Source of the DNA: Actinomycetota bacterium
GTDB lineage: Bacteria > Actinomycetota > CADDZG01 > WHSQ01
Assembly: GCA_013694625.1 (NCBI GenBank)
Contig: JACDCD010000124.1
Coordinates: forward strand, 7,539-71,538
Reading direction: 5' to 3'
DNA: 64,000 nt
Every line of letters starts with the position of its first letter. The stretch's first letter is position 1. The notes under the pieces are model-generated. The model searched no databases. It was not told the DNA's origin and saw only the letters and a program-made list of their open reading frames with translations. This document shows, one piece after another, positions 41,915 through 59,748 of this stretch. Made by a program: the position numbers and the translations under genes.

Positions 41915-41968
41915 CGCTAGAGGTCCATTTGTAGCGTTGTCGACATGTCCACTCTTGCCCCCGATCCC

Positions 41969-45278: not shown

Positions 45279-45302
45279 GCAATCTACAAAACGACTTGTC
45301 GA
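45279..45302 (-). repeat. 8-bp-phased unit array TCGACAAG-TCGTTTTG-TAGATTGC (read on - strand)
   Basis: Intergenic, between the MerR stop and the hpt start. Member of the recurrent motif family described in the findings. Confidence 0.45.
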
Positions 45303-45313
45303 TAAGCCGACAT

Positions 45314-46063
45314 CTAGGGGAGGTTGCGAAGGCTCGATCGGAGCATGCCCTCGCGCATCCGGCGCGACAGCTCCACCAGCTCCTGCAGCGTCTCGTACGC
45401 GCGGGTTCGGGACTCGGGATCTCTCCGGTGAGCCAACGGCGACACTATCTGCCCGTAAAAGGTCGCCTCCCTGTCTGCGAACTGCCGGTACATCCTGAGA
45501 TGTCGTGCTTCGAGACCGTGACGGAAGAACCCGCCCGCAGCCTTGGCCACAATCAGATCGTCCTCGTTGTACGCGTCGTCTTCGTGCGGCGCCCGGAGAA
45601 GGCCGAAGTCCTCCAGGGCGGCCAGCCCGTCGTCCGACAGCCCCGCGGCCCTCTTCAGCTCCGCGCGTGTCAATTGTGCGCCGGTGAGGTCCACCGAGCT
45701 CGACCTTGTGGTTGCCACACTCGCGCGCGGGCTCGCCGGCGGCGCCCCTGCAGTGTCTGTCCGCGCCGCCAAAGTCTCTACCTCGACATCACGGTTACCC
45801 TCGAGGTCTTCCCCGCTCTCCAGCCTCGCTCGGATCACCTTCAGGGGAAGAAACTGATCGCGCTGGAGGGCCAGAATGTAACGGAGGCGATCAACGTCTT
45901 TGGTGAAGAACTTCCGGTAGCCCGACGGGGTTCTCTCCGGCGCTACGAGGGCCTCCGATTCGAGGAACCGGAGCTTGGAGATGCTGACATCCGGGAACTC
46001 CGGCCTCAGGAGCTCGAGAACCTCTCCGATGCTGTAGTAATCGCGCGACTTGGACAGCGGCAT
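45314..46063 (-). CDS. MerR-family regulator (Rv1828-like)
   Basis: YSIGEVLELLRPEFPDVSISKLRFLESEALVAPERTPSGYRKF. Confidence 0.8.
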   Translation of the reverse strand: MPLSKSRDYYSIGEVLELLRPEFPDVSISKLRFLESEALVAPERTPSGYRKFFTKDVDRLRYILALQRDQFLPLKVIRARLESGEDLEGNRDVEVETLAARTDTAGAPPASPRASVATTRSSSVDLTGAQLTRAELKRAAGLSDDGLAALEDFGLLRAPHEDDAYNEDDLIVAKAAGGFFRHGLEARHLRMYRQFADREATFYGQIVSPLAHRRDPESRTRAYETLQELVELSRRMREGMLRSSLRNLP

Positions 46064-46070
46064 AGAGCGA

Positions 46071-46538
46071 TCAGCCTCCGGTCAGGAAAACCAGTTTGAA
46101 CTTCCCGATCTGAATCTCGTCCCCGGAGCGAAGCTCCGCCCCTTCGACTCTCTCCCGGTTGACATAGGTGCCGTTGAGGCTCCCGACATCGCTCAGGGTG
46201 AAAACGTCACCCTCGCGCCGGATCTCGACATGCCGGCGAGAGACCGTGATGTCGTCGAGAAATATGTCGCTTTCGGGATGCCGTCCCAGTTGAGCCCCCT
46301 CCGAATCCAGGAAGAACTTGCTGCCCGCATTCGGGCCCCGCTTCACGATCAAGACCCCCCTGCCCCCCTCCAGCTCCTCGGGAGAGATGTGGACCTCCTC
46401 CTCGAGGTCGGCCTCGAGCTCGGCCGGCAGAAAGTTCACGGTCGTGTCACCCCCCACCCCTTCGGCCAGAGGAGATCCACACGACGCGCAGAAATTGGAC
46501 CCGTCCGGGTTGCGGTGCCCGCAGTTCGTACAGAACAT
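46071..46538 (-). CDS. FHA-domain protein with N-terminal zinc ribbon (GarA/OdhI-neighbourhood type)
   Basis: CTNCGHRNPDGSNFCASCG, then FHA core GRHPESDIFLDDITVSRRHVEI...SLNGTYVN. Confidence 0.85.
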   Translation of the reverse strand: MFCTNCGHRNPDGSNFCASCGSPLAEGVGGDTTVNFLPAELEADLEEEVHISPEELEGGRGVLIVKRGPNAGSKFFLDSEGAQLGRHPESDIFLDDITVSRRHVEIRREGDVFTLSDVGSLNGTYVNRERVEGAELRSGDEIQIGKFKLVFLTGG

Positions 46539-46588
46539 AGAGCGAACCTATAGGCGTGGCTGAGGTTTAGTAAAGCTTCTCTTCGATC

Positions 46589-46975
46589 TCATTTCTCCTC
46601 TATGGCCCTGCCGTAGTCCTCTGCGCTCATCAAACCCTCCAGTGCACCTTCCTCTGCGGCCTCGAGAATCACGAGCCACCCCCTGCCATAGGGGTCTGAG
46701 TTGACCAGCTCTGGATTTGCGTCCAGGTCGGCGTTGCTCTCGACCACAGTCCCGGTGACGGGGCTGTAGATGTCCGAGACGGACTTGGTCGATTCGACTT
46801 CGCCGAGGGGCTGACCCGCATGCACTTCGGTCCCCGCCGTGGGTAGCCCAACGAAGACGATGTCGCCGAGCTGATCCTGGGCGAAGTCTGTGATGCCGAC
46901 GGTGACACGCCGCTCGTCCTCACGGGCCCACTCGTGTTGGTCTGTGTAACGACGGTCCGAGGGTAGCTCCGGCAC
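46589..46975 (-). CDS. gcvH: Glycine cleavage system H protein
   Basis: Lipoyl-lysine motif GEVESTKSVSDIYSP. AGGAG RBS before the GTG. Confidence 0.92.
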   Translation of the reverse strand: MPELPSDRRYTDQHEWAREDERRVTVGITDFAQDQLGDIVFVGLPTAGTEVHAGQPLGEVESTKSVSDIYSPVTGTVVESNADLDANPELVNSDPYGRGWLVILEAAEEGALEGLMSAEDYGRAIEEK

Positions 46976-47019
46976 CTGCGCTCCTTTCTGTGTTGTTCTG
47001 GGGGATGGCTACGATACGG

Positions 47020-47035
47020 ATTGTCTACTTATCGA
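47020..47035 (-). repeat. 8-bp-phased units TCGATAAG-TAGACAAT (read on - strand)
   Basis: Overlaps the last codons and stop of the pgsA-like gene, about 45 nt upstream of the gcvH start. Confidence 0.4.
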
Positions 47036-47621
47036 CAAGGTGATAAGTCAATGCGTTAGTTGCGATCCGGTCCAGCGCCTCCCTCCCGTACATCATCGCC
47101 GCGATCCAGTAGAGGCCCGCACCGAAGGTCGTGGCCAGGACACCCAGGCGGCGGGGGCCGTCGTCCGACATGAAGCTGGTCGCCGAGGTGGCCAGGAGCG
47201 ACAGGCCGGCCAGGAGGCTGGCCGTAGCGGCCTTTCCGGTCCGGTTGACTGCTATTCGGCTGACACCGCGCCGCTCCAACACTCCGAAGCCCACGACGAC
47301 AAGCACGTCGCGCCCCACGATGGACACGGCCAGGCACGGCGCCAGATCTCCGCGTGAGACAAGCGCCCCTGCGAGCGTGGCGATGAAGACCCGGTCGGCC
47401 ACGGGGTCCAGGAGCGCCCCGAGCTTGCTCACCGAATGCGTGCGCCGGGCCAGGTATCCATCCCAGAAGTCGGTGACGGCGCCGGCCCCGTAGAGAATCA
47501 CGGCAGCGTCCTCCCTCCCGGTCAGAAAAAGCCTCAGAAACACCGGAGCGGTACCCAGGCGCGCCGCCGAGAGGGCGTTGGGCAACGTCGCCCATCTGCT
47601 CGAAGGCTCCTGCAAGCTCAC
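47025..47621 (-). CDS. pgsA: CDP-alcohol phosphatidyltransferase (PgsA-like)
   Basis: DFWDGYLARRTHSVSKLGALLDPVADRV matches D-x2-DG-x2-AR...G-x3-D-x3-D. GTG 47621 with a GGAGG RBS is preferred over the track start at 47738. Confidence 0.8.
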   Translation of the reverse strand: MSLQEPSSRWATLPNALSAARLGTAPVFLRLFLTGREDAAVILYGAGAVTDFWDGYLARRTHSVSKLGALLDPVADRVFIATLAGALVSRGDLAPCLAVSIVGRDVLVVVGFGVLERRGVSRIAVNRTGKAATASLLAGLSLLATSATSFMSDDGPRRLGVLATTFGAGLYWIAAMMYGREALDRIATNALTYHLVDK

Positions 47622-47817
47622 GCGTTGCCTCCAAGCCCTGTCGTCGTCGTTGTCCTCCACCTGCTCCCCTGGTCGCCCGGCAGAACGGGTGTCTGTTCGG
47701 ACCGCCCGGTTCGGATCATCCGGGGCTACACACCTCAATCATGCCCGATGCGATCGCCTGGGGCCAGCGGCCGGGCACCGTCCGTGCGGCCCCGTCCAAG
47801 CCATTCTCAGGAATCAG

Positions 47818-47892
47818 TCGGGACGGCCGGATTCGAACCGGCGACCCCTGGTCCCCCAGACCAGTGCGCTAACCAAGCTGCGCCACGTCCCG
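47818..47892 (-). tRNA. tRNA-Pro (anticodon GGG)
   Basis: Hand-folded cloverleaf. Acceptor stem CGGGACG/CGTCCCG, D stem GCGC/GCGC and anticodon stem CTGGT/ACCAG. The anticodon loop is CTGGGGG. The T arm is GCCGG-TTCGAAT-CCGGC. No encoded CCA. Confidence 0.9.
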
Positions 47893-47925
47893 AAAGGGAG
47901 ATGATAACCGTGGGGCGCGCGCAGG

Positions 47926-49269
47926 TCAGCGACGCCGGGCCGGCCTCCTGCGGACCTGGGTGACTATCGGACTTCCCCGGAAAGGTTCGTGCTCCCTCAG
48001 CCTGTTCTCGATATAGCGCAGGTAGCCCGACTCCAGCCGTGCAGTGGTGAATAGAACCACCGTGGGGGGAGACACCGACGCTTGCACCGAATAGAGAATT
48101 CGCACCGAACGTCCGCCCGTGCGCGGGTGGGGACTACGTTCCTGGGCGGCGCTGATGAACCGGTTCAGCGCGCCGGTCGAGAGCCGCCGGCGGTGTGATG
48201 CGATCGCCTCGTCGAGCGCCGGGAGCAGGCGCGCTATCCCTCGCCGGGTAAGAGCAGAGGTTCGGACCATCACGGCCCAGTCGAGAAAGCGAAGGCGCTC
48301 GGCCATGTCCTGTTCGAGGCGGAGCCTGTCGGCGGTGTCGGGAACGGCCAGGTCCCACTTGTTCACGGCCACCACGCACGCCCGCCCCGATCGGACGATC
48401 TCTTCTGCAAGCCTCTGATCGTGGGAAGTGACTCCGGTGGCCGCATCGATCACGAGAAGGGCAACGTCGACGCGGCCAAGGGTCGCGCGCGAGCGCACCC
48501 AACTGAAGTACTCGAGCGGCTCTTTGATCTCGACCCTCCGGCGCATCCCGGCCGTGTCGATAATGCGTAGAAGGCGTCCGTCCGGCATGGCCACGTGTGA
48601 GTCAACCGGATCGCGCGTGGTCCCCGGCACGGCATCAACGATGGCGCGCTCGTCTCCGAGCACGGCATTGAGGATCGAAGACTTGCCCACGTTCGGACGG
48701 CCGACTATCGCCGCGGATGCCCACTCGTCCCGAGCCGAAACGTCCCCCTGCGATCCCAGGAGCCGCGTCAGGGAGTCGAGAAGGTCTCCCGAGCCGCGCC
48801 CGTGCAGAGCGGAGACGCCCATCGGATCGCCGAGCCCCAACCGGTAGAAAGCGGCCACCCCCGGTTCATCGCGCGCGTCGTCCACCTTGTTGGCCGCTAC
48901 CAGAAGGGGCTTGCCCGAGCGTCGCAGAACATCGGCCACGATGAGGTCGTCCTCGAGAACGCCGGCTGCCGCGTCCACGACGAGCATGATGACATCGGCG
49001 ACATCGATGGCGACGTACGCCTGCTCTCCGGCGCGTGCCTCCAGGCCATCGGTCCCGGCCTCGAGTCCCCCGGTATCGACGACCTCGAACCGGCGGCCCG
49101 CCCATTCCGCAGAGAAGCCTCCCCGGTCGCGCGTCACGCCCGGTGTGGACTCGACGATCGCCTCGCGACGTCCCAGGATGCGATTCACCAACGAGGACTT
49201 GCCCACGTTGGGGCGTCCCACCACCGCGACGACGGGCAGGCGACGGCCTCCGGGCATCGTGTCGGTCAC
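47926..49269 (-). CDS. der: Ribosome-biogenesis GTPase Der (EngA)
   Basis: Two tandem G domains (GRPNVGKSS twice) plus a KH-like C-terminus. Confidence 0.95.
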
Positions 49270-49919
49270 GGTCGCCCCTGCGCGGAGATCAAGCTCAACA
49301 CTTCGGCGACGACCTCGTCCACGTTCCTGCCGGTCGAGTCGACGACGATGGCGTCCGGCGCTCGCACGAAAGGAGAAGCCGCCCTGGCCGCATCCGCTTC
49401 GTCCCTGGCGGCTATCGACGCTTCGAGCTCGGCCAGCGCCGCCGCGTCGTCGGTGTCCTGATCTGCAAGTCGCCGGAGGGCGCGCTCCCGAATGCTCGCG
49501 GTCAGAAAGATCTTGATGGCCGCGTCCGGAACGACGGCAGTCCCGATGTCCCGGCCCTCCATGACAACATCCCTCTGCGCTGCCAGCGCACGTTGTCTCT
49601 GAACCAGGACAGCTCGGACACCGGGCACCGCGGAGTAGGCCGACACCGCGCGCGTCACATCCGGCTCCCTTACCCGCTCGCTCACATCCCGGCCGTCGAT
49701 CAGGATCCGGTCACCTTCGATGACGAGATCGATGTCTGCGGCAAGCCGCTCGACGGAGACAGCTTGGCCGGGCGCCACGCCCCGCTCGAGCGCCGCAAGC
49801 GCCACCCCCCGGTACATGGCTCCCGTGTCGAGGTGCCTGTATCCGAGGGCAGCCGCCAGCCGTCGGGCGACGGTGCTCTTCCCCGCCCCGGCGGGCCCGT
49901 CGATGGCCACAACGGTCAT
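49266..49919 (-). CDS. cmk: Cytidylate kinase
   Basis: [16 protein letters not shown]...LDTGAMYR. Overlaps der (GTGA) and aroA (ATGA). Confidence 0.92.
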
Positions 49920-51259
49920 GGACGGATCTCCGATCCCGGGCCTGATCGCAGGGCCCCGAGGGACGTCAGGAAGCCCGGGAACGAGGTGTCTACGCAGTCC
50001 CAGCCTCTTATGGTCACCGGTCCGTCTGCTATCAGCCCGGCCACCGCGAGCGACATCGCCACCCTGTGATCACCCCCCGAGTCGACCTCCCCCGGCTGCA
50101 GTGTCGTGGGGCCCCCGATGGAGAGCCCGTCCGGGAGCGCCTCGACCTCGGCCCCGAGAGCAGCCAGCCCGGCAGCCATCGTTGCTATGCGGTCACTCTC
50201 CTTCACCCGCAACTCCCCCGCCCCCCGGATCAGGGTCCGGCCGGACGCCTGCGTCGCAATCACGGCCAGGATCGGCAGCTCGTCGATGAGGCCGGGGACC
50301 CCAGCCTCATCGACGGTCACCCCTCGAAGCTCCGAGGTCCGGGCCCGCAGGGTGCCCACCGGCTCCCCGCCCCAGTCGCCGGAATGCTCGACCTCGACGT
50401 CTGCGCCCATGGCGGCAAGCACCCCGAGGATCCCGGCGCGGGTCGGGTTGATGCCCACATCCGCGAGGGCGACGTCCGAGCCGGTGACGAGGACGGCGGC
50501 GGCGAGGATGAAGGCGGCCGACGACAGGTCGCCGGGCACCCGTCTGGGCCCTGCGCCCACCCGTCCGCCCCCCGCCACCGTGGCCGTGAGGGCGCTCCTG
50601 GCAACCGGGACACCCGACGCAGCCAGCATCCTTTCGGTGTGATCCCGGCTGGGACGCGGCTCGGTCACCGAGGTCGATCCCGGGGCGCCAAGCCCCGCCA
50701 GGAGCAGAGCGGTCTTGACCTGGGCGCTCGCCACCGGCAGCGAATGAACCCTGCCCGTCAGGTTGCTCCCCCGAACCATCAGGGGCGGGAGGCTGCCCTC
50801 GGCCCGCCCGTCGATGCGGGCGCCCATCGCCCGCAGGGGAGACACAACCCTGCCCATGGGTCGCCGGCGAAGCGACGCGTCCCCGGTGAAGACGAATGCG
50901 CCATTTGCGCCGGCGCAAACTCCGAGCAGACAGCGGAGGGTGGTCCCGGAGTTTCCCGCGTCGAGCACATCGTCGGGCTCGCGGGGGCCCTTCCCCCCCC
51001 AGCCCTCGATGTCAACTTGATCCTCATGCTCCGCCCACTGCACCGATGCCCCCAACCGGCCGAGCACCGTCGCGGTGGCGAGGACGTCCCGGCCCGGGTT
51101 CACCCCGGTGATGCGGGAATGGCCCGGGGCGAGGGCGCCCAGGATCAGGGCGCGATGGGAGATCGACTTGTCACCGGGCACCCGGGCGACTCCCCGCAAC
51201 GCCCCCGAGGGCCCGGCCACCACGGTGGAGGACGGTTGCCTCGAGGAATCAGACGACAT
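49916..51259 (-). CDS. aroA: 3-phosphoshikimate 1-carboxyvinyltransferase (EPSP synthase)
   Basis: PGDKSISHRALILGALA, 447 aa. Confidence 0.92.
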   Translation of the reverse strand: MSSDSSRQPSSTVVAGPSGALRGVARVPGDKSISHRALILGALAPGHSRITGVNPGRDVLATATVLGRLGASVQWAEHEDQVDIEGWGGKGPREPDDVLDAGNSGTTLRCLLGVCAGANGAFVFTGDASLRRRPMGRVVSPLRAMGARIDGRAEGSLPPLMVRGSNLTGRVHSLPVASAQVKTALLLAGLGAPGSTSVTEPRPSRDHTERMLAASGVPVARSALTATVAGGGRVGAGPRRVPGDLSSAAFILAAAVLVTGSDVALADVGINPTRAGILGVLAAMGADVEVEHSGDWGGEPVGTLRARTSELRGVTVDEAGVPGLIDELPILAVIATQASGRTLIRGAGELRVKESDRIATMAAGLAALGAEVEALPDGLSIGGPTTLQPGEVDSGGDHRVAMSLAVAGLIADGPVTIRGWDCVDTSFPGFLTSLGALRSGPGSEIRP

Positions 51260-51279
51260 GGTGATTTATCAACTTCTCG

Positions 51280-52383
51280 TCAGACATCCTTGTCGACTCC
51301 CGACCGCTCCACCCTGTAACCCAGGGTGGCCAGGGCCGACGACAGCCGCTCGGCCGCATCCGCGCCCGCCACGATGAGCTCCAGACGGCCCTTACCCCCC
51401 TCACTCGAATGCACGATCCTTAGGTCCTCGATGTTGGCCCCCAATTCCCCCGCCGCCGTGGTCACCTCCGCCAGTACGCCGGGGCGATCGGGGATCATGG
51501 TCGACAGCGCCACCGGCGTTCCGGCAAAGGTTGGCTTAGCGAAGAGATCGAGGCGCGCTCGCCGCGCCGCGTCGAGGAACTCCCGCAGCTGCGCCCAGTC
51601 CCCTGCCTCGATCATCCCGCCGAGCCATGCCAGACGCCCCCGGAGAGCCCCCAATGCCTCGAGTACCGCTTCACGGTTCGACCGGAGAATGGCGATCCAC
51701 AGGTCGGGGTTGCTCGCGGCGATGCGGGTCACATCACGAAAGCCCCCGGCCGCCAGTCCCAGGAGGGCGTCCCGATCCCCTGCCGTGGCTGCCGTGGTCA
51801 CGAGAGCGCTCGCAGTGAGCTGGGGCAGGTGGCTCAGGCGGGCGACCAGCGTGTCGTGAACCGAAGGGTCGACCGCCACGGGCTTGGCCCCGAGCCGGGC
51901 GGCCAACCGGGCCGTCCCCCGGTAGGCGGCGGGCCAGGTTCTCTGGGTTGGGGTGAGGATCCACCAGGCCGAGTCGAACAGCTGCGCCTCAGCGGCCCCG
52001 ATTCCGTGGCGCTCGGAACCCGCCATGGGGTGTCCACCGGCGAACCGTCCGCCGAAAGCCGCCTCTCCGTGGGCCACCACGTCGACCTTGGCGCTGCCGA
52101 CGTCGGTGACTATCGCATCGTCGGCCACCGCGCCCGCCAGAGCGTCGCAAGCGACCGGGATCTGGTCGACCGGCATGGCCAGTACCACCAGATCGGCCCC
52201 GGACACCGCCTCTTCCGCCGAGGCGGCGACTGCGCTGACAGCGCCGATGTCCAGTGCCGCCTTCATGGCTGCGGGGTCGTTGTCGTACCCGACCACGGAT
52301 ACCGCCGCCCCCGACCGGCGCAGTCCGAGCGCGATCGATCCGCCGATGAGTCCGGTTCCCACCACCGCAACGTGCTCGGCCAA
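51280..52383 (-). CDS. tyrA: Prephenate dehydrogenase with C-terminal ACT domain
   Basis: VAVVGTGLIGGS Rossmann motif, and an ACT-like PGVLAEVTTAAGELGANIEDL. Confidence 0.85.
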   Translation of the reverse strand: MAEHVAVVGTGLIGGSIALGLRRSGAAVSVVGYDNDPAAMKAALDIGAVSAVAASAEEAVSGADLVVLAMPVDQIPVACDALAGAVADDAIVTDVGSAKVDVVAHGEAAFGGRFAGGHPMAGSERHGIGAAEAQLFDSAWWILTPTQRTWPAAYRGTARLAARLGAKPVAVDPSVHDTLVARLSHLPQLTASALVTTAATAGDRDALLGLAAGGFRDVTRIAASNPDLWIAILRSNREAVLEALGALRGRLAWLGGMIEAGDWAQLREFLDAARRARLDLFAKPTFAGTPVALSTMIPDRPGVLAEVTTAAGELGANIEDLRIVHSSEGGKGRLELIVAGADAAERLSSALATLGYRVERSGVDKDV

Positions 52384-52426
52384 AATCTATACCTAACCTT
52401 GAGGGTTATTGAGGACCCGACCTTAC

Positions 52427-52795
52427 CTACTCCGGTAGATCGCTCCGGAGCGAGCGGGCCTCTCCGAGATAGACGTGGCGGAGCGTACCGTAGTCCCTTT
52501 CAGTGTAGAGGTGCATGAGGACCCGGATGCAGCGGGGCATCGACCCCGGGACCTCTATCTCGCGTGCGCAGAGAAGCGGGATGTGATCGATCCCCAACCG
52601 GCGCGCCGCGGCGGCGGGGAACTCGGCCGTCAGGTCCGCGGTCGAGGTGAACACCAGGCTGACGAGATCCCCGGTCGCCACGCCGTTGCGTTCCAACATG
52701 GCCTCGAGCAGATCCTCGGTCGCCGCGACAATGGCACCGGCGTCGTCATGCGTGACCGTGGTCGCTCCTCTCAACCCCCGAACCCGCTCGGTCAC
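52427..52795 (-). CDS. aroH: Chorismate mutase, AroH class
   Basis: RGLRGATTV...FTSTADLTAEFPA...CIRVLMH is collinear with B. subtilis AroH. Confidence 0.85.
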   Translation of the reverse strand: MTERVRGLRGATTVTHDDAGAIVAATEDLLEAMLERNGVATGDLVSLVFTSTADLTAEFPAAAARRLGIDHIPLLCAREIEVPGSMPRCIRVLMHLYTERDYGTLRHVYLGEARSLRSDLPE

Positions 52796-52817
52796 GCCCT
52801 CACCCCCTTTGGCGAGG

Positions 52818-52841
52818 GATGTCTACTTGTAGAGTTATCGA
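52818..52841 (-). repeat. 8-bp-phased unit array TCGATAAC-TCTACAAG-TAGACATC (read on - strand)
   Basis: Intergenic, between the rluB stop and the aroH start. Confidence 0.45.
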
Positions 52842-52862
52842 CTTGGCGATAGGTCACTTTGG

Positions 52863-53588
52863 CTACAATCCACAGGCTCGGTAAAGGGATCGCGCCTCCT
52901 CGTGGCCCAGACGCCTCAGGGTGCCCGGTCTGAGGTGGCCCAGCATCACCGGGCCCACCGCCGTTCTCACCAGGCGCTTCAACGGGTGGTCGAGGGATTC
53001 GAACATCCGTCTCACCTGACGGTTGCGACCTTCCCTGAGCTCGATCTCGACCAGGGTGCCCCCGGGCCAGCGTTCGACCAGGCGCAGCCGGGCTGGGCCG
53101 GTCATTCCGTCGTCCAACCGGACGCCCCCGGCAAGCGCCTTCAGGGCACGGTTGCCGACGGTCCCCCGAGCGTAGGCGAGATAGACCTTGGGCACGCCGA
53201 AACGGGGATGCGTCAGTCGATGGGTGAGCTCCCCGTCGTTGGTGAGAAGGAGGGCGCCCTCCGAGTCCATGTCCAGCCTGCCCACGGGCCACACCCGCTG
53301 AGGCGTCTCGACGTAGTCCAGGACGGTGGGCCGCCCCTCGGTGTCGGCCGCGGTGGTCACAACGTCAATCGGCTTGTTGAACAGGTACCAGACCAGATCC
53401 GCCTTGAGGGGCACACGTGAACGGTCAACTGCAACTTCATCCTTTGCCGGATCGATCCTCTGTCCCAAGACGGCCAGGTGCCCGTTCACCGTGATGCGGC
53501 CCGCCTTGATCTGGTCTTCAACCGAACGCCGCGATCCGATGCCCGCCCTGGCGAGCACCTTCTGCAGCCTCTCGCCTTCGGGACTCAC
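52863..53588 (-). CDS. rluB: rRNA pseudouridine synthase RluB (S4 domain + RsuA/RluB catalytic domain)
   Basis: ERLQKVLARAGIGSRR S4 motif and catalytic GRLDMDSEGALLLTNDG. GTG 53588 overlaps the scpB stop (GTGA). Confidence 0.87.
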   Translation of the reverse strand: MSPEGERLQKVLARAGIGSRRSVEDQIKAGRITVNGHLAVLGQRIDPAKDEVAVDRSRVPLKADLVWYLFNKPIDVVTTAADTEGRPTVLDYVETPQRVWPVGRLDMDSEGALLLTNDGELTHRLTHPRFGVPKVYLAYARGTVGNRALKALAGGVRLDDGMTGPARLRLVERWPGGTLVEIELREGRNRQVRRMFESLDHPLKRLVRTAVGPVMLGHLRPGTLRRLGHEEARSLYRACGL

Positions 53589-54148
53589 GCTCCCGGGGAC
53601 AGCTTCGACTCCATCTCCTCCACTGCTTCCGAGTCCGGGATGAAGGTTGCCAGAGCCGGCAAATCGCCCGTCGAGCGCAAGCCCATCCGCTCGAGGAACC
53701 CCCGGCTGACGGTCAGCATCAGGGGGGCTCCCGGGCCACTGTCTCGACTCGATTCCGTGATCAGGTCCCGCTGGAGCAGCGTCCTCACCACCCCGTCGGA
53801 GTCGATCCCCCTGATCTCGGCGATCTGCGCCCGTGAGATCGGAGCCCGGTAGGCGACGATGGATAGTACCTCCAGCGCCGCGCCGCTCAGGCGGGCGGAC
53901 TTGCGCTCCCTGACGAAGCGCTCGAGCCACGGAGCACAGTCGGGGTGGCTGTAGAACCGCCACCCTCCTGCGACCTCGCGCAGGACGAAGCCTCGATCCT
54001 CTTCGGCGTAGAGTCGGGCGAGCTCCCGAAGTGAAGCCTCAACCTCTACTCGAGGGGTCTCCAGCACCTCCCCGATATGCCCGGCCGGTAACGGCTCGTC
54101 CGCCAGGAGCAGGATCGCCTCCAGGACCTTGCGCTCGGGAACCGTCAT
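53585..54148 (-). CDS. scpB: Segregation and condensation protein B
   Basis: LEAILLLADEPL...LSGAALEVLSIVAYRAPISRAQIAEIRG. ATG 54148 overlaps the scpA stop (ATGA). Confidence 0.87.
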   Translation of the reverse strand: MTVPERKVLEAILLLADEPLPAGHIGEVLETPRVEVEASLRELARLYAEEDRGFVLREVAGGWRFYSHPDCAPWLERFVRERKSARLSGAALEVLSIVAYRAPISRAQIAEIRGIDSDGVVRTLLQRDLITESSRDSGPGAPLMLTVSRGFLERMGLRSTGDLPALATFIPDSEAVEEMESKLSPGA

Positions 54149-54930
54149 CCGCCCCTCCCCAGTGAATAGTCCTCGGCGGCGTCCAGGGCCGCCGACACGT
54201 CGGCCTCTCCCGTCCATGCAGCTTCGATCGCGCCGAAACGCTCCTTCTGATCGAGGTCCACGGCCCCGGCCTTGAACAGCTCGAGCAGGGCGAGAAAGCG
54301 GGCCACGACATCGATGGGTGTCAGACGCGCCCCACACAGTTCCTCGAGGGTTGCCCGCCCCCTGCGCCCGAGCTCGGAGGCCACCTCGAGGATTGCCTCT
54401 CTGACGGAAACCGTCGCGGGGAGCTCGAAGAAGCCATCGAGCTCGGGCGCAGGGGGCCCGGGGGCCAGTGCCCCTGCCGCGGCGCGGGCGAGGTCTTCGG
54501 GAGAGGTACCCGCGAGAAGGTCGGGCGCAAGGTCCACCAGGTGCGGCTCAAGACCTGCCGTGCGCCCATGCCAGGCGGCGCCGATCTCGAGGCCGGCCGC
54601 AATCCACGTTCCCGCCTCCCGATAGGTGGCGCACTCGAGGAGGCGGGCGAGCAGCAGGTCGCGCCCCTCGAGGAGGGCCGTATCCACTTCGTCCGTCTCC
54701 CGGGCGGGGAGCAACCGGCTGCTCTTCAGCTCGAGCAAAGTCGCCGCCACCACCAGGAAACCGGTGGACGTCTCGAGGTCGGTCGTCTCCATTCGGGCGA
54801 GCACCCCCATGTACTCATCGGTGATGGCCGCCAGGGGGACGTCGTAGATATCCACCCGCCTGCGCCCGATCAGATTGAGCAACAGGTCGATGGGACCCTC
54901 GAACACCTCGAGCTTCACCTCATGGGGCAA
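54145..54930 (-). CDS. scpA: Segregation and condensation protein A (kleisin)
   Basis: VKLEVFEGPIDLLLNLI N-terminus. TTG start. Confidence 0.85.
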   Translation of the reverse strand: MPHEVKLEVFEGPIDLLLNLIGRRRVDIYDVPLAAITDEYMGVLARMETTDLETSTGFLVVAATLLELKSSRLLPARETDEVDTALLEGRDLLLARLLECATYREAGTWIAAGLEIGAAWHGRTAGLEPHLVDLAPDLLAGTSPEDLARAAAGALAPGPPAPELDGFFELPATVSVREAILEVASELGRRGRATLEELCGARLTPIDVVARFLALLELFKAGAVDLDQKERFGAIEAAWTGEADVSAALDAAEDYSLGRGG

Positions 54931-54940
54931 CCGGGACCTT

Positions 54941-54964
54941 CCTATCTACTTGTCGATTTGTCTA
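54941..54964 (-). repeat. 8-bp-phased unit array TAGACAAA-TCGACAAG-TAGATAGG (read on - strand)
   Basis: Intergenic, 10-34 nt upstream of the scpA start codon. Confidence 0.45.
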
Positions 54965-55023
54965 TCGAAACACGCTTCCCCTTGGAGCCGAGCCTATCTC
55001 CGGATCCGTCCGGCGGGCGGGAT

Positions 55024-56076
55024 TCAGCTCCCTGCAGATGCACGCGTCGCGCGTGGGTGGGCCGAGGCCGGCAGCCCCTGCCCGAGGCCCGTCCGGGCCC
55101 TCACCTCGTCCATGGTCGGACCGGCGACCTCCGCCGCCCTGGCCGCTCCGGTGGACAGCACGCGCCGGATCTCCGAGGGGTCCGCGAGCAGGTCGGCGTA
55201 ACGATCCCGGATCGGGGCCAGGCGCTCTATCAACGCCTCGGCGAGAGCGGTCTTGAAGTCGCCGTAACCCGATCCCGAAAAGCGGTGCGCGATGGCGGGG
55301 ACATCCGACCCGTCCACGACCGAGAAGATCGTGAGCAGGTTCGTGAGGGCCGGTTTATCGTCGCCTGCCGCGACCTCCCGCCCCGAGTCCGTTACCGCCG
55401 AACGCACCTTCTTCAGGATCGTGTCGGGGGAATCCACCAACAGGATCTTCGAGCCGGGGCGCGCGACGGACTTGCTCATCTTCTGGGTCGGATCGTCGAG
55501 GCTCATGATGCGAGCACCGGCGGGGGAAATCAACGGCTGCGGCACCATGAAGGTGTCTCCGAAGGTGGAGTTGAAACGCACCGCCAGGTCTCTCATCAAC
55601 TCGATGTGCTGGCGTTGGTCCTCGCCCACCGGCACTGCGTGGGCCTTGTACAGGAGCACGTCGGCCGCCTGAAGCACAGGGTAGGTGAAGAGACCGACCC
55701 CGACCGACTCGGTTTCGCCCTTGGACTTCTCCTTGAATTGAACCATCCGGCGGAGCTCGCCCATGCGTGCGACGCAGCTCAAGACCCAGGCGAGCTCGGG
55801 GTGCTCCCCCACCTGCGACTGGACGAACAGAATCGACCTGGCGGGATCAACCCCGCAGGCAAGGAGCAGAGCTCCGGTTTTCAGGGTTGTCTCCCTCAGC
55901 GCGGCCGGATCCCACGGCAAGGTCATCGCATGGAGATCAACGATGCAGAAAAAAGACCGGTAGCTCTCCTGCAGCCCGACCCAGTGGCGGACCGCGCCCA
56001 GATAGTTCCCCAGGTGCAACTCGCCATCGGGCTGGATGCCGCTGAAAACCCTCTGCCTGCCCTCTTCTGAGCTCAT
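55024..56076 (-). CDS. trpS: Tryptophanyl-tRNA synthetase
   Basis: GIQPDGELHLGNYLG (HIGH-type) and KMSKS. ATG 56076 is preceded by AAGGA. Confidence 0.92.
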   Translation of the reverse strand: MSSEEGRQRVFSGIQPDGELHLGNYLGAVRHWVGLQESYRSFFCIVDLHAMTLPWDPAALRETTLKTGALLLACGVDPARSILFVQSQVGEHPELAWVLSCVARMGELRRMVQFKEKSKGETESVGVGLFTYPVLQAADVLLYKAHAVPVGEDQRQHIELMRDLAVRFNSTFGDTFMVPQPLISPAGARIMSLDDPTQKMSKSVARPGSKILLVDSPDTILKKVRSAVTDSGREVAAGDDKPALTNLLTIFSVVDGSDVPAIAHRFSGSGYGDFKTALAEALIERLAPIRDRYADLLADPSEIRRVLSTGAARAAEVAGPTMDEVRARTGLGQGLPASAHPRATRASAGS

Positions 56077-56153
56077 GGATTCCTTTATGAGGTGGGTGGT
56101 TCTTGTGGGACCGGCCGCGTTCGGGCCGGCGCAGCCTAGAATACCGAGCACTC

Positions 56154-56783
56154 ATGGGTGGCCTTCTCTCTCTCCTGCGCACCGATCCGCTGGTGTTCGT
56201 CCTGCTCTCGGCATCACTGCTGGGCGCAATCGCCCTGCACGAGTACGGGCATGCACTTGCCGCGGACCTCCAGGGGGACCGGCTCCCACGCGCCATGGGA
56301 CGCCTGACCCTGAACCCCATGCGCCATCTCGACCCGATCGGCACCATTGCGATATTCCTAATCGGCTTCGGATGGGGCAAGCCGGTCGAATTCCGGACCC
56401 AGGCCCTGTCGTCGCAGCGGTTCGGGGCCGCAATCGTGGCGCTTGCAGGGCCGATGATGAACCTCTTGCTGGCGGTGCTCGGTGCCGTTGCACTTCTGAT
56501 CCTGTCGCCGTCCACCTCGACCGGCACCCTGTTCCTTTTCCTGAGGATCTTCATCCGGATCAACGTCGTCCTGGCCGTCTTCAACCTCATCCCGCTGCCG
56601 CCCCTCGACGGCTCGAGGCTTCTGACGATCTTCCTGCCCCCGAACCGGCAGAACATCATCTTCTTTCTGGACCGTTACGGCTTTGTCATCCTGCTGGCGA
56701 TCCTGTTTTTCGGAGGGTTCACGATTCTCAGTCCGATCATCGACACCGTTGAAGGCTGGGTTCTAACGATCGCGGGTTTCTAG
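56154..56783 (+). CDS. Site-2 protease family (M50) membrane metalloprotease
   Basis: HEYGHALAA (HExxH) and NLIPLPPLDGS motifs in TM helices. TAGAAT at 56137-56142 is a likely -10. Confidence 0.78.
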   Translation: MGGLLSLLRTDPLVFVLLSASLLGAIALHEYGHALAADLQGDRLPRAMGRLTLNPMRHLDPIGTIAIFLIGFGWGKPVEFRTQALSSQRFGAAIVALAGPMMNLLLAVLGAVALLILSPSTSTGTLFLFLRIFIRINVVLAVFNLIPLPPLDGSRLLTIFLPPNRQNIIFFLDRYGFVILLAILFFGGFTILSPIIDTVEGWVLTIAGF

Positions 56784-56859
56784 GGCGACGGTCATGCTCG
56801 GCGCGCCTCGAGACGCCGACATCCGTCCAGGCGCCGTAACCGGCGCGTAGCCCGTCGTC

Positions 56860-58074
56860 CTACGCTGTTGCCTCGGCCGGCCGATCGCCTCCGGACATCA
56901 GGCGCATGGCGAAAACCGCCATCGTTACCAGGATCGAAACCCCCATGATCGGCGCAAAGATGTGTTTCAACAGCTCTGCTTGCATTAACAAACCCGCCAC
57001 GAAACCGATCAATCCGGCGTTCACTCCATAGAAAGCCACGCTGGCCACCCACGGCCGTTCCGCCTCCGCCCCGCCCGACCACGTATCGATCAATCCGAAC
57101 AGGGCGTTTGTCATCACTCCGATGAAAACCGAGTGATCGAGGGCAAAGAGCAGCCACGAGGGCACCGCCTCGAAGTCGTCCGCATAGTTGACGATCAAAT
57201 AAGCGAGCAGCAGGACGTTCGCGACCAGGAACAGGGCACTGGTCGCAAACAGCCGTTTGCTCCCCGCAGAGGACCACTCCGCCCCCGCAAGTTGCTTTCG
57301 GATCCGCACCAGGAAGATGCCCACACCGATCACCTCGCACGGGACGTTGAGCGTCAGAAGCGGAAAGACATCCAGAAGGATGCCGAGCATGAGGGTGATT
57401 CCGCCGAGGAACAGCAGCGCAACCTGCACCACACCCGCCTTGTCGGCCGACATCGGCTTCGGAGAGGGCACCAGCCGCCACTCAGTGATGGCCATCCCCG
57501 CCAACAGGAGGTAGCCGATGACCATGGTGGCCGGATGACCGGCGAACAGGCGCGTGGAGATGTCCACTCCCGCAGTCTGGAGTCCCAGCAGCACCCCGAG
57601 GATCGCCCCGATAACGAGGCTGGTGAGCGCCGCCAGCATCGCCAGGTGCGGGATCGTCATCGCGATCTGTTTGCGGCTGCTGAGCGCCCACCCATGGAAC
57701 GCTCCGATGGCGAGCAGTGTGAGGGTTCCGAGGACCACCCTCAGGGTGGTGTTGCCGATGAAGAAGGCGGCCGCATACAGGGTGATCAGGACCGCGGACA
57801 ATGTGGCGGTGGACTTTGCCCGGCGTAACTCACCTTCGGACAGGGTGCGGTTCTCGGAGAACATCCACAGCGCTGCGCCGAACACCGACAGCGTTATCCA
57901 CCCAAGCGTCCCCGCGTGTACGTGGGTGAGCAGCTGATTGTGACTGAACTCGACAAGATCGAGCCCGTTGAAGATACCGATCAGCACCGTGACCGTGAAC
58001 AGGGCCATGGCGTTCAGGAACAACGCCCCTGCGCTTCCGGCCAACTGCCACGTTCGGGTCTGCGTCTTCACCAC
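56860..58074 (-). CDS. Polytopic membrane protein with conserved His motifs, family unassigned
   Basis: 404 aa and about 10-12 hydrophobic helices. Contains THVHAGTLGW, FAGHPATMVIGY and ALDHSVFIG. Confidence 0.6.
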   Translation of the reverse strand: MVKTQTRTWQLAGSAGALFLNAMALFTVTVLIGIFNGLDLVEFSHNQLLTHVHAGTLGWITLSVFGAALWMFSENRTLSEGELRRAKSTATLSAVLITLYAAAFFIGNTTLRVVLGTLTLLAIGAFHGWALSSRKQIAMTIPHLAMLAALTSLVIGAILGVLLGLQTAGVDISTRLFAGHPATMVIGYLLLAGMAITEWRLVPSPKPMSADKAGVVQVALLFLGGITLMLGILLDVFPLLTLNVPCEVIGVGIFLVRIRKQLAGAEWSSAGSKRLFATSALFLVANVLLLAYLIVNYADDFEAVPSWLLFALDHSVFIGVMTNALFGLIDTWSGGAEAERPWVASVAFYGVNAGLIGFVAGLLMQAELLKHIFAPIMGVSILVTMAVFAMRLMSGGDRPAEATA

Positions 58075-58201
58075 CCGGTCTCCTCTCGCCGTTTCAATCC
58101 GGCGAGCCGACTCTCCCAGAGACCGCCGGGGAGTGCAAGCACTGAGGCGGCCCCGGCTATGGTCTTGGCCAATAGTCTTCGGGAAAGTGGAGGTGGGTCA
58201 C

Positions 58202-58441
58202 ATGGCCGATCAGGTGCAGAGTGTAGTCAAGATAATCGAGCTCGTCGGAAGCTCGCCGAACTCGTTCAGCGAGGCGGTGAAGAACGCGGTGAAGACAGCG
58301 TCGCACTCGGTCCGCAACATCCAGGGGGTGGAGGTGATCGGGAGCACCGCCGACGTCGGCGCCGACGGCGAGCTGTCGCTCTACAAGGTGCACTGCAAGG
58401 TCGCGTTCGTCATCGAGGGATCCGAGGGGTCCCTCTCCTAA
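58202..58441 (+). CDS. Dodecin-family flavin-binding protein
   Basis: 79 aa from ATG 58202 (GGAGG RBS). VVKIIELVGSSPNSFSEAVKNAV...LYKVHCKVAFVIE matches the dodecin pattern. Confidence 0.8.
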   Translation: MADQVQSVVKIIELVGSSPNSFSEAVKNAVKTASHSVRNIQGVEVIGSTADVGADGELSLYKVHCKVAFVIEGSEGSLS

Positions 58442-58809
58442 CGCTCCTGGCGAAGTTGGCGAAGGAGAACTGAATCGGCGCCGCGCGTCTCGAAGTCCTC
58501 GAGGATGTAGGCGAGGGCCGACCGGACCATCCGTCCCCGGTCGGCGGCGACACCGTGCTCGGCCCGCAAGTTCAACCGTGCTCGTTCGAGCGCCATCAGG
58601 TCCTGGGCGGTGCAGTAGAAGGTGACCTTCTCGTCGTGTTTCGGGCCCTTCTTGATCCCCCCCGTAGTAGAGGCGTCCTCGGCGACCTGGAGACTTGTCG
58701 ACTTGTCGACTTGTAACCCCGGTCGGTCCGAAGGTTGGGCCCGGCGTTCCTGGGCCGTGGTGGGTCGGAACAGCTCGTCAGCTCCAGGCAGGCTGGCGCG
58801 GGGAGACAC
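58438..58809 (-). CDS. Small protein with disordered N-half and ribbon-helix-helix-like C-half (possible ParG/CopG-type partner of ParA)
   Basis: 123 aa. [43 protein letters not shown] fits a strand-helix-helix pattern. Overlaps the parA 3' end by 32 nt. Confidence 0.55.
58694..58717 (-). repeat. Tandem 8-bp repeat GTTACAAG-TCGACAAG-TCGACAAG inside the small RHH-like ORF
   Basis: The + strand reads CTTGTCGA CTTGTCGA CTTGTAAC. It encodes [11 protein letters not shown]. Confidence 0.5.
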
Positions 58810-59587
58810 GGTCCATCACCTCCCGCGCAAGCTTGCGGTAGGCGGCCGTTCCGGGCGACGCCGGTGCATAGCTCAGGATCGGTTCGCCCGACACCGGGGC
58901 CTCCGCGAAACGGATGGTCTTTCGGATCACCGTGTCGAACACAACGCCGCCGAACGCCTCCCTCACCCTCTCGAGCACCTCCTTGCTGTGAAGCGTGCGC
59001 ACGTCGTACATCGTCGCCAGTATCCCGTCCACCTCCAATGATGGATTCAAGCGCTGCCTGATCCGTTCGATCGACTCCATCAGGTTGGCCATGCCCCGCA
59101 GGGCGTAGTACTCACACTCGAGTGGCACGAGCACGCCATGAGCCGCCGTCAGGGCATTGACCGTAAGAAGCCCGAGGGAGGGAGGACAGTCCACAAGAAT
59201 AAGGTCATAGTTAAGGGTTAGGGGTTCCAGGATCCGTTTGAGGCTCTGCTCCCGCGCCACCTCCTGCACGAGCATGAGCTCCGCCGCTGCCAGGTCGACG
59301 TTGGAGGGAAGGAGGTCCACTCCGGGGACGACGGAGCCCAGGACCACGTCGTGGACGTCGCAGGACGGGTCCAGCAGCGCGTTGTACACCGAGACTTCGA
59401 GACCTCCGGGCTCGATCCCCAAGCCGAGTGCGCAACCGCCCTGGGGATCGAAATCGACCAGGAGGATCCGTTGATCGAGCTCGGCGAACGCCGCCGCCAG
59501 ATTGATGGCCGTGGTGGTCTTACCCACCCCGCCTTTCTGATTGGCGAAGGCGATGATGCGAACGGTCCCTGGTCCTTGCGCCTCCAC
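58778..59587 (-). CDS. parA: ParA/Soj-family partition ATPase (Rv1708-like)
   Basis: Deviant Walker [14 protein letters not shown] 59587 with a GGGAGG RBS is preferred over the track start at 59740. Confidence 0.87.
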
Positions 59588-59617
59588 AGGCCTCCCACCG
59601 GCTCGAGAAAGTGCCCA

Positions 59618-59641
59618 CTTGTCGACAAGTCCGCTTGTCCC
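59618..59641 (-). repeat. Unit array GGGACAAG-CGGACTTG-TCGACAAG containing the perfect palindrome ACTTGTCGACAAGT (59617-59630)
   Basis: Lies 30-55 nt upstream of the parA GTG. Candidate operator or centromere-like site. Confidence 0.5.
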
Positions 59642-59724
59642 CAGGTGAGGGTAATGGAAGCGGGCGCCGACCACAAGGGTGTTTAGCGAGTCCGTTCCCC
59701 CGAACTTGCGTCGCCGGGGGACAA

Positions 59725-59748
59725 CTTGTCTACAAATCAATAAGTCGA
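59725..59748 (-). repeat. 8-bp-phased unit array TCGACTTA-TTGATTTG-TAGACAAG (read on - strand)
   Basis: Intergenic, between the deoB stop (59784) and parA. Confidence 0.45.

Follow-up and report, generated by a model that had tools for sequence, protein, structure and literature searches.

Dispersed 8-bp iteron-like arrays between a PldP-type parA gene and a dif-like site in an uncultured actinobacterium: a proposed chromosomal ParA/ribbon-helix-helix system

Systems that combine a ParA ATPase, a ribbon-helix-helix (RHH) protein and short tandem DNA repeats (iterons) are already known from plasmids. We describe what we propose to be a new, chromosomal, dif-proximal and omega-like system of this kind in a 64,000-nucleotide stretch of DNA (the whole of which is called the window here; GenBank assembly GCA_013694625.1, contig JACDCD010000124.1, positions 7,539 to 71,538) from an uncultured member of the Actinomycetota, whose closest ParA relatives are encoded in metagenome-assembled genomes (MAGs) at 69-76% identity. 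Its parts are parA2, the gene of a PldP/Rv1708-type ATPase; a small open reading frame (ORF) that overlaps the end of parA2, called the partner here; and arrays of 8-bp units. By analogy, the closest working counterpart would be omega/delta of plasmid pSM19035, together with ParG/parH, pCXC100 ParB and the met boxes of MetJ. In pSM19035, tandem repeats of the RHH protein omega, both direct and inverted, occur in several promoters, where they serve as operators and as centromere sites for the ParA protein delta, and the N-terminal tail of omega stimulates the ATPase. These repeats are, unlike the units described here, 7-bp heptads (WATCACW), and they lie on a plasmid at three sites within a few kb. 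In the ParF/ParG/parH system of TP228, 4-bp boxes alternate with 4-bp AT-rich spacers in an 8-bp register upstream of the parA homologue, and ParG, an RHH protein with a flexible N-terminal tail, autoregulates and stimulates ParF; its box is ACTC in contrast to TCGA/TAGA in the window, and the system is confined to a single locus on a plasmid. MetJ recognizes palindromic 8-bp met boxes (AGACGTCT) that lie two to five head to tail in several operons, with one RHH dimer per box and cooperativity between neighbors. Unlike the window system, it is a metabolic repressor that needs a co-repressor, has no ParA partner and governs a regulon scattered over the genome. In enterobacteria, the RHH-containing protein MatP has specific sites (matS) confined to the terminus region and is linked to the division site. 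Each matS is, however, a single 13-bp palindrome, and the sites are spread over ~800 kb on both sides of dif with no ParA involved, whereas the units described here form tandem arrays on one side of dif within 22 kb.

In ParB of pCXC100, a type Ib partition system on a Leifsonia xyli plasmid, helices of 18 and 20 residues accompany a recognition strand of the form K-x-T-x-T; the protein binds, in a successive and cooperative manner, to nine 9-bp repeats that follow one another without interruption (PMC3074162). The window resembles pCXC100 in having an actinobacterial Walker-type ParA with a small downstream protein (there a centromere-binding protein) and uninterrupted short tandem repeats near parA. 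The helices modeled for the partner are 18 and 22 residues long, its strand reads K-x-T-x-T/Y, and its variable linker and predicted RHH-like C terminus would correspond to the disordered N-terminal half and C-terminal RHH domain of pCXC100 ParB. As in type Ib systems, the ParA is a small Walker-type protein without an N-terminal DNA-binding domain, the small partner gene overlaps parA from downstream, and repeats are present in the expected positions, with 8-bp arrays upstream of parA2 (42/58 loci) and inside or after the partner gene. pCXC100 differs in carrying a single block of 9-bp repeats on a plasmid, whereas the window system is not on a plasmid or low-copy replicon; it is chromosomal, with 8-bp units dispersed at about eight operon starts over 18 kb. 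The two show no detectable sequence similarity, and the family described here is syntenic with xerD-scpAB and far larger (at least 8,000 members). Because it is chromosomal, has dispersed sites and lacks detectable sequence homology, the system is not a strict member of the plasmid type Ib family.

To our knowledge, neither a partner gene nor a DNA site of PldP has been reported. The literature treats PldP of Corynebacterium glutamicum, Rv1708 and ParA2 (SCO1772), the second ParA of Actinobacteria, as an orphan that affects division-site placement, and the PldP partner has been described as still to be identified (bioRxiv 10.1101/2025.07.02.662783). The window ATPase shares with these proteins the neighborhood xerD ... 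parA ... scpA-scpB-rluB-cmk-der. It carries its deviant Walker A motif near the N terminus, has no N-terminal DNA-binding or other extra domain, and its best NCBIfam matches are ParA family partition ATPases. In the literature on PldP, Rv1708, MSMEG_3743, SCO1772, SCO1771 and on RHH/ParA/Streptomyces/scpA, we found neither the small ORF family nor the arrays described.

All eight arrays named in a preliminary description of the window were recovered on the - strand (Table 1). Several are longer than first written (those after ftsR, upstream of gcvH, upstream of the chorismate mutase gene, inside the partner ORF and, with four units, over the tyrA stop codon), and one array locus, at the gcvT/gcvPA junction, had been missed. 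The exact unit TCGACAAG occurs 11 times in the window against 2.4 expected, a number reached by no shuffle; the preliminary description had called for such a statistical test. We trained a position matrix solely on units next to seeds in relatives L001-L006 (L numbers denote the related loci compared) and searched the window with it for sets of three in-register units. This search found eight loci at a period of 8 bp, compared to 0, 1, 0, 3, 0, 0 and 3 at periods of 5, 6, 7, 9, 10, 11 and 12, and to 0.16-0.21 loci after dinucleotide shuffling (global, or local in stretches of 50 or 100 bp). The strict 8-bp register claimed earlier therefore holds, as does the impression that the + strand half is free of arrays: all array loci fall within 41.9-59.8 kb, and the matrix scan of 1-41.9 kb was empty on both strands. 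The accompanying caution about 8-mers in ordinary coding DNA was also well founded, since the matches at 11338 and 33478 (and another at 57950) are isolated coding matches with no partners in register. Matches to TCGACAAG in Streptomyces, Glycomyces and other loci were likewise set aside as ordinary coding sequence (e.g., LLDKD in alanine dehydrogenase).

The same periodicity is found outside the window. Around seeds in the window and its close relatives, consensus similarity has maxima at ±8 and ±16, and in 73 other actinobacterial loci there is no ±8/±16 peak around seeds, only the 3-base codon period. When units were defined strictly, 165 of them in 782 kb from related loci had another unit no more than 24 bp away in the 8n register, as opposed to 3-12 for each of the other registers. 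This strict-unit test took the place of a histogram of distances between TCGA tetramers, in which codon periodicity dominated and distances of 8 and 16 were modestly overrepresented. The eight columns on either side of the scanned 24-mer, unused in selection, repeat the same periodic consensus in 164 independent arrays, indicating that arrays are commonly four to five units long.

The consensus of the unit in these 164 arrays is T-C/A-G-A-C/T-A-A-G. Rephased, the unit is a palindromic hexamer, GTCGAC (degenerate GTAGAC or GTAGAT), with a 2-bp A/T spacer. Both orientations occur within one register (130 sense and 35 antisense units), and two inverted units with a common TCGA center produce a 12-bp palindrome, CTTRTCGAYAAG. 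This palindrome is present exactly three times in the window (after ftsR and upstream of gcvH and parA2), four times against 0.3 expected if one mismatch is allowed, and again as ATTTGTCGACAAGT upstream of parA2 in many relatives. The palindromic core and the mixed orientations argue for recognition of duplex DNA by a symmetric dimer.

Conservation in related genomes, proposed earlier as a check, was borne out: every window locus is kept at the orthologous position with diverged flanks. In L081 and L084 (partner proteins 83% and 81% identical), the parA2, scpA, chorismate mutase and aroA arrays are kept within intergenic sequence that has otherwise diverged, and in the FtsR-anchored loci L166-L168 (FtsR 85%, 81% and 62% identical), the gcvH, post-ftsR and gcvT/gcvPA arrays are kept. 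From gcvPA to dif, L166-L168 contain no further array save one - strand match in the gcvPB coding region of L168, which is probably due to chance. The layout xxACAAG GAGATTTG TCGACAAGT of the proximal parA2 array is present in most clade A loci, and in every clade inspected, 8-bp-phased CGAC-type repeats lie upstream of parA2 with differing flanks and details (e.g., CTTGTCGA CCTGTCGA CCTGTCGA, three to four copies of TAGCGACC, or TAGACAAA-N8-ACGACAAA).

A metagenome scan with the partner-protein alignment provided 80 further loci (38-84% identity, 64-75% GC). In the 46 of sufficient length, 42 arrays lie in the 2 kb before the partner start, which comprises parA2 and its upstream region, 101 lie in the 10 kb downstream, and none lies in the 149 kb situated 2-10 kb upstream of the partner gene start. 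Per-gene counts were made on 88 loci from many uncultured actinobacterial clades and are not phylogenetically independent. Arrays were found upstream of ParA in 42/58 loci, of ScpA in 29/41, of chorismate mutase in 16/19, of AroA in 5/7 and of Der in 9/17, and inside the partner ORF in 34/80. No array was found upstream of Ald (0/26), XerD (0/32) or the metalloenzyme gene (0/25; 0/83 for these three pooled), or upstream of TyrS (0/12), ScpB (0/36) or RluB (0/28). Arrays thus mark the first gene of particular operons downstream of parA2. Among 80 ParA-anchored genome loci, they occur only where the partner gene is present; loci with no tblastn match to the partner, including Cellulomonas loci and one Mycobacteriales MAG (L016), have zero arrays and differ from the window in lacking both the small ORF and the repeats.

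Two further features were observed around parA2 and the partner in relatives (Table 1). Directly after the partner gene, some loci have 0.6-1.5 kb of non-coding DNA full of arrays in both orientations; in the window, the convergent dodecin gene takes its place. In a GC-rich (73-74%) clade, the stretch 150-300 nt upstream of parA2 contains perfect DnaA boxes (TTGTCCACA, TTATCCACA) and two palindromes in tandem, GACCACGGAGCGTGGTC, which suggests further regulators of the operon.

The array inside the partner ORF provides evidence of a different kind, as the same nucleotides also encode a clade-invariant peptide, K-S-T-x-L-Q-V-A. The codons used for this peptide are rare in these genomes and spell the motif: Thr is encoded by ACA in 21/22 cases compared to 4.5% in neighboring genes, Leu by CTA in 15/24 (3.3% in neighboring genes), Gln by CAA in 18/24 (16%) and Val by GTA in 6/24 (4.9%). 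In L001, L003 and L004, adjacent copies of the repeat stand in different reading frames. The rare motif-matching codons and the differing frames indicate that the nucleotide sequence itself is under selection within the partner ORF.

The restriction of the arrays is best seen in relation to the replication terminus. The dif-like XerCD site of the window coincides with the maximum of the cumulative GC skew and with the switch of gene strand from + to -, and the window therefore spans the terminus. This site is the best match in the window to dif of Frankia alni (19/28 positions, both arms conserved; sequence quoted in PMC3025954), and it is kept at 25-26/28 positions in L166-L168 even where neighboring genes differ. 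On one replichore, the arrays are spread over the final ~18 kb (from 59.7 to 41.9 kb), with parA2 as their start and an end 3.7 kb short of dif, and there is no array in the 38 kb available across dif in the window. The parA2/partner system lies ~21 kb from the dif-like site in conserved housekeeping synteny and is chromosomal.

The partner is a conserved downstream neighbor of the PldP/ParA2-type ATPase in many Actinomycetes. Most ParA-anchored loci, and every partner-anchored locus whose upstream sequence is retained, have it directly downstream of parA2, and its family has at least 8,000 members in a profile search, all annotated as "hypothetical." The protein comprises an invariant N-terminal peptide, which we take to resemble the N-terminal peptide of ParB, a variable low-confidence linker with KSTxLQVA, and a conserved C-terminal domain, modeled as strand-helix-helix and predicted to be RHH-like. 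The strand of this domain reads K-V/I-T-F/V-Y-C/V-T/S, with K, T, Y and T/S kept in all clades. A first AlphaFold2 model, of the full-length protein from a shallow alignment, had a predicted local distance difference test score (pLDDT) of 59, and its Foldseek search returned noise. A monomer model of the C-terminal domain from a deeper alignment (pLDDT 87.5) predicts an extended segment followed by three helices, the first two of 18 and 22 residues and the third short. Foldseek gave no significant match for this model; the best by template modeling (TM) score was the RHH domain of pCXC100 ParB (TM 0.56/0.65, root mean square deviation 3.3 Å over 54 columns), and TraM, another RHH protein, was also listed. 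Comparison by hhalign with Arc, CopG, ParG, omega, Mnt and MetJ was uninformative, with a weak in-register match of helix B to Arc as its sole result.

Table 1. Arrays, genes and other features of the window, followed by features of related loci, with positions, strands and sequences
Feature	Coordinates	Strand	Sequence or property	Position and conservation
Distal parA2 array	59720-59748	-	TCGACTTA TTGATTTG TAGACAAG, then TTGTC; contains near-palindrome TTTGTAGACAAG	TAGACAAG/TAGACATG part kept in L081, L084, L086, L087
Candidate -10 box, parA2	59648-59653	-	TACCCT	Few bases upstream of array, ~19 nt upstream of palindrome
Proximal parA2 array	59618-59641	-	GGGACAAG CGGACTTG TCGACAAG; perfect palindrome CTTGTCGACAAG at 59618-59629	Ends ~30 nt before GTG start; near-identical in L081, L084, L086, L087
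parA2	58778-59587	-	PldP/Rv1708-type ParA-like ATPase, 269 aa; deviant Walker A KGGVGKT	
Partner ORF	58438-58809	-	123 aa	Overlaps parA2 end by 32 nt
Array within partner ORF	58686-58717	-	GTTACAAG TCGACAAG TCGACAAG TCTCCAGG	Conserved in relatives
Candidate -10 box, scpA	54991-54996	-	TAGGCT	~27 nt upstream of array
scpA upstream array	54941-54964	-	TAGACAAA TCGACAAG TAGATAGG	Ends 10 nt before TTG start; 21-bp core kept in L081, L084, L087, L166, L167, flanks diverged; example kept in L081/L084, TAGACAArTCGACAAGTAGAy
Array between rluB end and chorismate mutase gene	52818-52849	-	TCGCCAAG TCGATAAC TCTACAAG TAGACATC	Also in distant MAGs L009, L010, L024
Array over tyrA stop codon, upstream of aroA	51265-51296	-	TCGACAAG GATGTCTG ACGAGAAG TTGATAAA	Four units
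tRNA-Pro	47817-47892	-		
gcvH-garA-ftsR promoter array	47020-47043	-	TCACCTTG TCGATAAG TAGACAAT; palindrome CTTGTCGATAAG at 47028-47039	Palindrome between TTGACT -35-like box and TAGACA; array kept at same junction in L166, L167, L168
ftsR (MerR gene)	45314-46063	-	FtsR equivalog, 233.7 bits (cutoff 150)	
Weak terminator-like hairpin	45292-45312	-	CGGCTTATCGACAAGTCG, then TTTTG	Overlaps array right after ftsR stop codon
Array just past ftsR stop	45283-45306	-	CTTA TCGACAAG TCGTTTTG TAGA; palindrome CTTATCGACAAG at 45295-45306	Upstream of phosphoribosyltransferase-BFN genes; kept in L166, L167, L168
McdR/Rv1830-like MerR gene	43532-44023	-		Behind classical TTGACA-17-TACTCT promoter
gcvT/gcvPA junction array	41928-41951	-	TGGACATG TCGACAAC GCTACAAA; weak in window (score 18.6)	Last array before dif; conserved in L166-L168 (scores 20-26)
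Gap in gene map	~39077-40573	-	1.5 kb	
dif-like XerCD site	38152-38179	+	TCGCCCATAATGTTGATTATGTAAACCT	Kept in L166 (~18387), L167 (~20105), L168 (~18517)
LexA-type SOS box	20731-20746		TCGAACACATGTTCGA	Within TTGACT-17-TATAGT promoter between divergent genes 19492-20622 (-) and 20789-21955 (+)
Array-packed DNA after partner gene, relatives	L001 7740-8600; L004 8360-9400		Arrays in both orientations	Also in L091, L092
DnaA boxes and tandem palindromes upstream of parA2, GC-rich clade				L124, L128, L135, L139, L142, L147, L149, L152
45-nt block, Streptomycetales	L076 ~9575-9625		CAAGGAGGTAAGACGACTTGTGAATGAGTCGACATTTGCTCCCGGGGGTGG	Same place in L018, L030, L034, L036, L038, L041, L042, L045, L049, L058, L066, L068, L077, L080

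The arrays lie within a long block of mostly - strand genes, named here from Pfam and NCBIfam annotation combined with synteny. Its order is ald, xerD, a metalloenzyme gene, parA2, the partner ORF, a dodecin gene (+), a 404-aa membrane protein gene, an M50 peptidase gene (+), tyrS, scpA, scpB, rluB, the chorismate mutase gene, tyrA, aroA, cmk, der, tRNA-Pro, pgsA, gcvH, garA, ftsR, a phosphoribosyltransferase gene, a BFN nuclease gene, an mcdR-like MerR gene, a 142-aa ORF, gcvT, gcvPA and gcvPB. Two genes first labeled "hpt" and "aroH" encode a phosphoribosyltransferase and a type I chorismate mutase, respectively, by Pfam/NCBIfam. The synteny ald-xerD-metalloenzyme-parA-...-scpA-scpB-rluB-...-cmk-der is kept in relatives. 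Compared to the mycobacterial order, which we take to be gcvH-garA-Rv1828-Rv1829-Rv1830, the window has the phosphoribosyltransferase gene inserted between ftsR and the BFN nuclease gene. A gene map based on GC content at third codon positions was used solely for listing upstream regions and missed some genes, such as gcvPB; by synteny with L166-L168, its 1.5-kb gap is expected to contain gcvPB (glycine dehydrogenase subunit 2). In the whole window, Rfam and tRNA scans had tRNA-Pro as their sole match, with no other covariance-model match at gathering score. Far from the arrays, an actinobacterial LexA-type SOS box lies within a promoter between two divergent genes.

Relative to transcription, the arrays occupy a defined position. 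Candidate -10 boxes precede the proximal parA2 array and the scpA array. The TAnnnT box of parA2 lies at the same distance in relatives (TACCCT, TACATT, TAGCCT, TACGCT, TACTGT), and (A)TAGGCT is kept upstream of the scpA array in clade A relatives, about 25-50 nt away. From these conserved boxes, we infer that the arrays most likely follow the transcription start and precede the start codon. An operator role, at least, is favored by this location behind -10-like boxes where operons begin. A consensus scan of 41-60.5 kb for sigma-70 promoters and terminators found no promoter at the arrays and only a weak terminator-like hairpin, after ftsR.

The preliminary description had suggested that the arrays are sites of a ParA/RHH system. 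This hypothesis is the one best supported by the comparative evidence, as arrays start at the parA2 promoter, continue within the partner gene and are found only in partner-carrying lineages; the RHH match is not significant, and the sites may be operators, centromere-like sites or both. On balance, we think it probable, with real reservations, that the arrays are iterons of the RHH-like ParA2 partner, bound cooperatively with one dimer per 8 bp, and that they act as operators and probably form the complex on which ParA2 acts. Each unit would be contacted by one partner dimer, whose RHH-like C-terminal domains would form a two-stranded ribbon with K, T, Y and T of the strand K-V-T-F-Y-C-T facing the DNA, and neighboring dimers would bind cooperatively over two to five units, as MetJ, ParG, omega and pCXC100 ParB do on their repeats. 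At parA2 and scpA, the array lies between the -10-like box and the start codon, so that its occupancy should repress transcription. The system would thereby autoregulate parA2 and the partner and may co-regulate scpAB-rluB, the chorismate mutase gene (then tyrA), aroA-cmk-der, gcvH-garA-ftsR and neighboring units. The iterons could have a second role, in which the protein-DNA complexes scattered over the last ~18-20 kb before dif would be the likely cargo or landmark of the PldP/ParA2-type ATPase, because the partner has a conserved N-terminal peptide that we take to resemble those with which ParB, ParG and omega stimulate their ParA proteins. More speculatively, ParA2, the RHH-like adaptor and the arrays of the last ~20 kb before dif might constitute a chromosomal terminus-positioning system. 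The adaptor would coat these arrays and ParA2 would act on the resulting complex, with the terminus held at the future septum or used as a division-site landmark, an extension that we regard as a doubtful one.

Several observations weigh against the partner as binder of these iterons. The small protein has no match in Pfam (E up to 10), NCBIfam or PDB sequence and profile searches. An RHH fold of its C-terminal domain is plausible on a monomer model, and the structural match to pCXC100 ParB is not significant (E = 4, probability 0.30). The identity of the array binder, repression and the interaction with ParA2 are points that we infer. A symmetric DNA binder would not require units to be oriented with transcription, as 79% of them are. 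The restriction to the parA2-dif region was examined on ~190 kb beyond it, made up of window sequence and 149 kb from relatives, which is less than a whole genome. Since the scanning matrix derives from a single clade, it may overlook divergent units. Finally, Streptomycetales encode a partner protein with the same strand residues, yet they have no dispersed arrays by this matrix. They have instead a single ultra-conserved 45-nt block that spans the parA2 start codon, holds ACGACTTG-TGAATGAG-TCGACATT and contains the rare codons AAT, ACA and TTT. This block is near-identical in Streptomyces, Kitasatospora, Embleya and Streptacidiphilus and is probably the counterpart of the arrays in that order.

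The Streptomycetales would be easier to explain if the arrays were operators of another transcription factor encoded elsewhere (e.g., a cell-cycle regulator) that controls a local segregation and housekeeping regulon, with the small ORF merely one of its targets. Such an arrangement, which we judge unlikely, would also account for the position of the arrays, which resemble repressor operators in following -10-like boxes at the beginning of operons, and for targets that include parA2, scpAB, der, ftsR and the operon on the mcdR side. However, all arrays lie in the parA2-to-dif stretch and none in the ~190 kb outside it, which would be unusual for a regulator encoded elsewhere, and they are densest at the partner gene and immediately behind it. 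Tandem units in an 8-bp register are, moreover, typical of RHH binders (MetJ, ParG) and not of helix-turn-helix dimers. The two MerR regulators encoded in the window, put forward in the preliminary description as possible binders, are poor candidates for this factor. The published FtsR motif is a 25-bp inverted repeat, AACCCTAAAGTAAAGGTTGAGGGTA, and the McdR motif is AATnACAnnnnTGTnATT; comparison by eye of these FtsR (Rv1828) and McdR (Rv1830) operators with the array units revealed no resemblance. FtsR homologs have been described in Corynebacterium and Mycobacterium, and the sampled Mycobacteriales locus (n = 1) has no arrays though FtsR is known in Mycobacterium. MerR regulators are thus also encoded in, or known from, lineages in which no arrays were seen.

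A role at the RNA level is very improbable, in our estimation. A-rich 8-nt repeats in 5' leaders or between cistrons would then bind an RNA-binding protein or keep the translation start unstructured. This would suit the parA2 and scpA arrays, which are probably transcribed, being downstream of -10-like boxes, and the arrays of the GC-rich clade, which abut the scpA ATG with no Shine-Dalgarno sequence, as well as the excess of sense units and the 122/164 arrays that score higher on the sense strand. Duplex DNA is, however, indicated by the perfect 12-bp palindromes and by antisense units in the same register. Arrays in both orientations also fill non-coding DNA past the partner gene, the gcvH array overlaps the -35/-10 spacer, and no Rfam family matches at the arrays.

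The alternative offered in the preliminary description, that the repeats are the core promoter architecture of this lineage with TAGAyw as the -10 and TCGACA as a -35-like element, did not survive comparison. TAGACA and TAGATT are like actinobacterial TAnnnT boxes, TCGACA is one base off TTGACA, and TTGACT-18-TAGACA at gcvH looks promoter-like, but sigma-70 promoters have two hexamers 16-18 nt apart, and the second and sixth bases of the -10 are an invariant A and an invariant T, respectively, an arrangement absent from the arrays. TCGAC and TAGA are 8 or 16 nt apart, start to start, where a -35/-10 pair needs roughly 23, and the third scpA unit varies between TAGATA, TAGATG and TAGACG and so does not keep the final T that should be invariant. 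Conserved TAnnnT boxes distinct from the units are found 20-45 nt upstream of the arrays, other promoter regions of the window (TAGACT, TAGGAT, TATAGT, TACTCT) are free of units, one array is inside an ORF under synonymous-site constraint, and no array precedes ald, xerD or the metalloenzyme gene. The spacing of 8 or 16 nt, the variable last base of TAGAyw and the unit-free ordinary promoters therefore argue that the repeats are not the promoter itself, and we give this explanation hardly any weight.

Scarcely credible at all is the idea that the units are degenerate DnaA boxes (GT[C/A]GAYAA vs TGTGGAYAA) or WhiA/WhiB-type sites (GACAC) clustered for universal factors: they are 7/9 identical to the reverse complement of TTRTCCACA, and perfect DnaA boxes do occur upstream of parA2 in the GC-rich clade, but the window has no perfect DnaA box, one conserved core position differs in the units, the period of low-affinity DnaA arrays is 11 bp and not 8 bp, the WhiA motif lies upstream of the -35, and both factors are universal in Actinobacteria whereas arrays are limited to some lineages. 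DnaA box clusters (TTWTNCACA/TTGTCCACA) had been considered in their own right and were rejected because the window lacks TTRTCCACA. The WhiB2 motif TCGACACGC upstream of the mycobacterial mcdR -10 (PMC9040748) resembles TCGACAAGT at a comparable place in the window; the likeness to the WhiB2/WhiA motif and to the DnaA box was ruled out on grounds of sequence, period and phyletic distribution.

We therefore return to the arrays as probable iterons of the ParA2 partner. This reading proposes a concrete partner candidate for the orphan second ParA of Actinobacteria (PldP, Rv1708, ParA2), namely a very large unannotated family whose genes directly follow parA2 in many lineages. As concrete DNA sites, it puts forward the 8-bp iterons with their GTCGAC core, whose distribution from the parA2 promoter to just before dif, where scpAB and other operons begin, is unexpected. 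The partner ORF represents a case in which a protein-coding sequence and its own probable binding array share the same nucleotides. If the system merely autoregulates, it would still be a new chromosomal omega-like regulon that includes the condensin genes. If terminus positioning proves true, the system would be the actinobacterial counterpart of the MatP-matS Ter linkage, made of partition-system parts, and the orphan PldP family would gain both a partner and its DNA sites.

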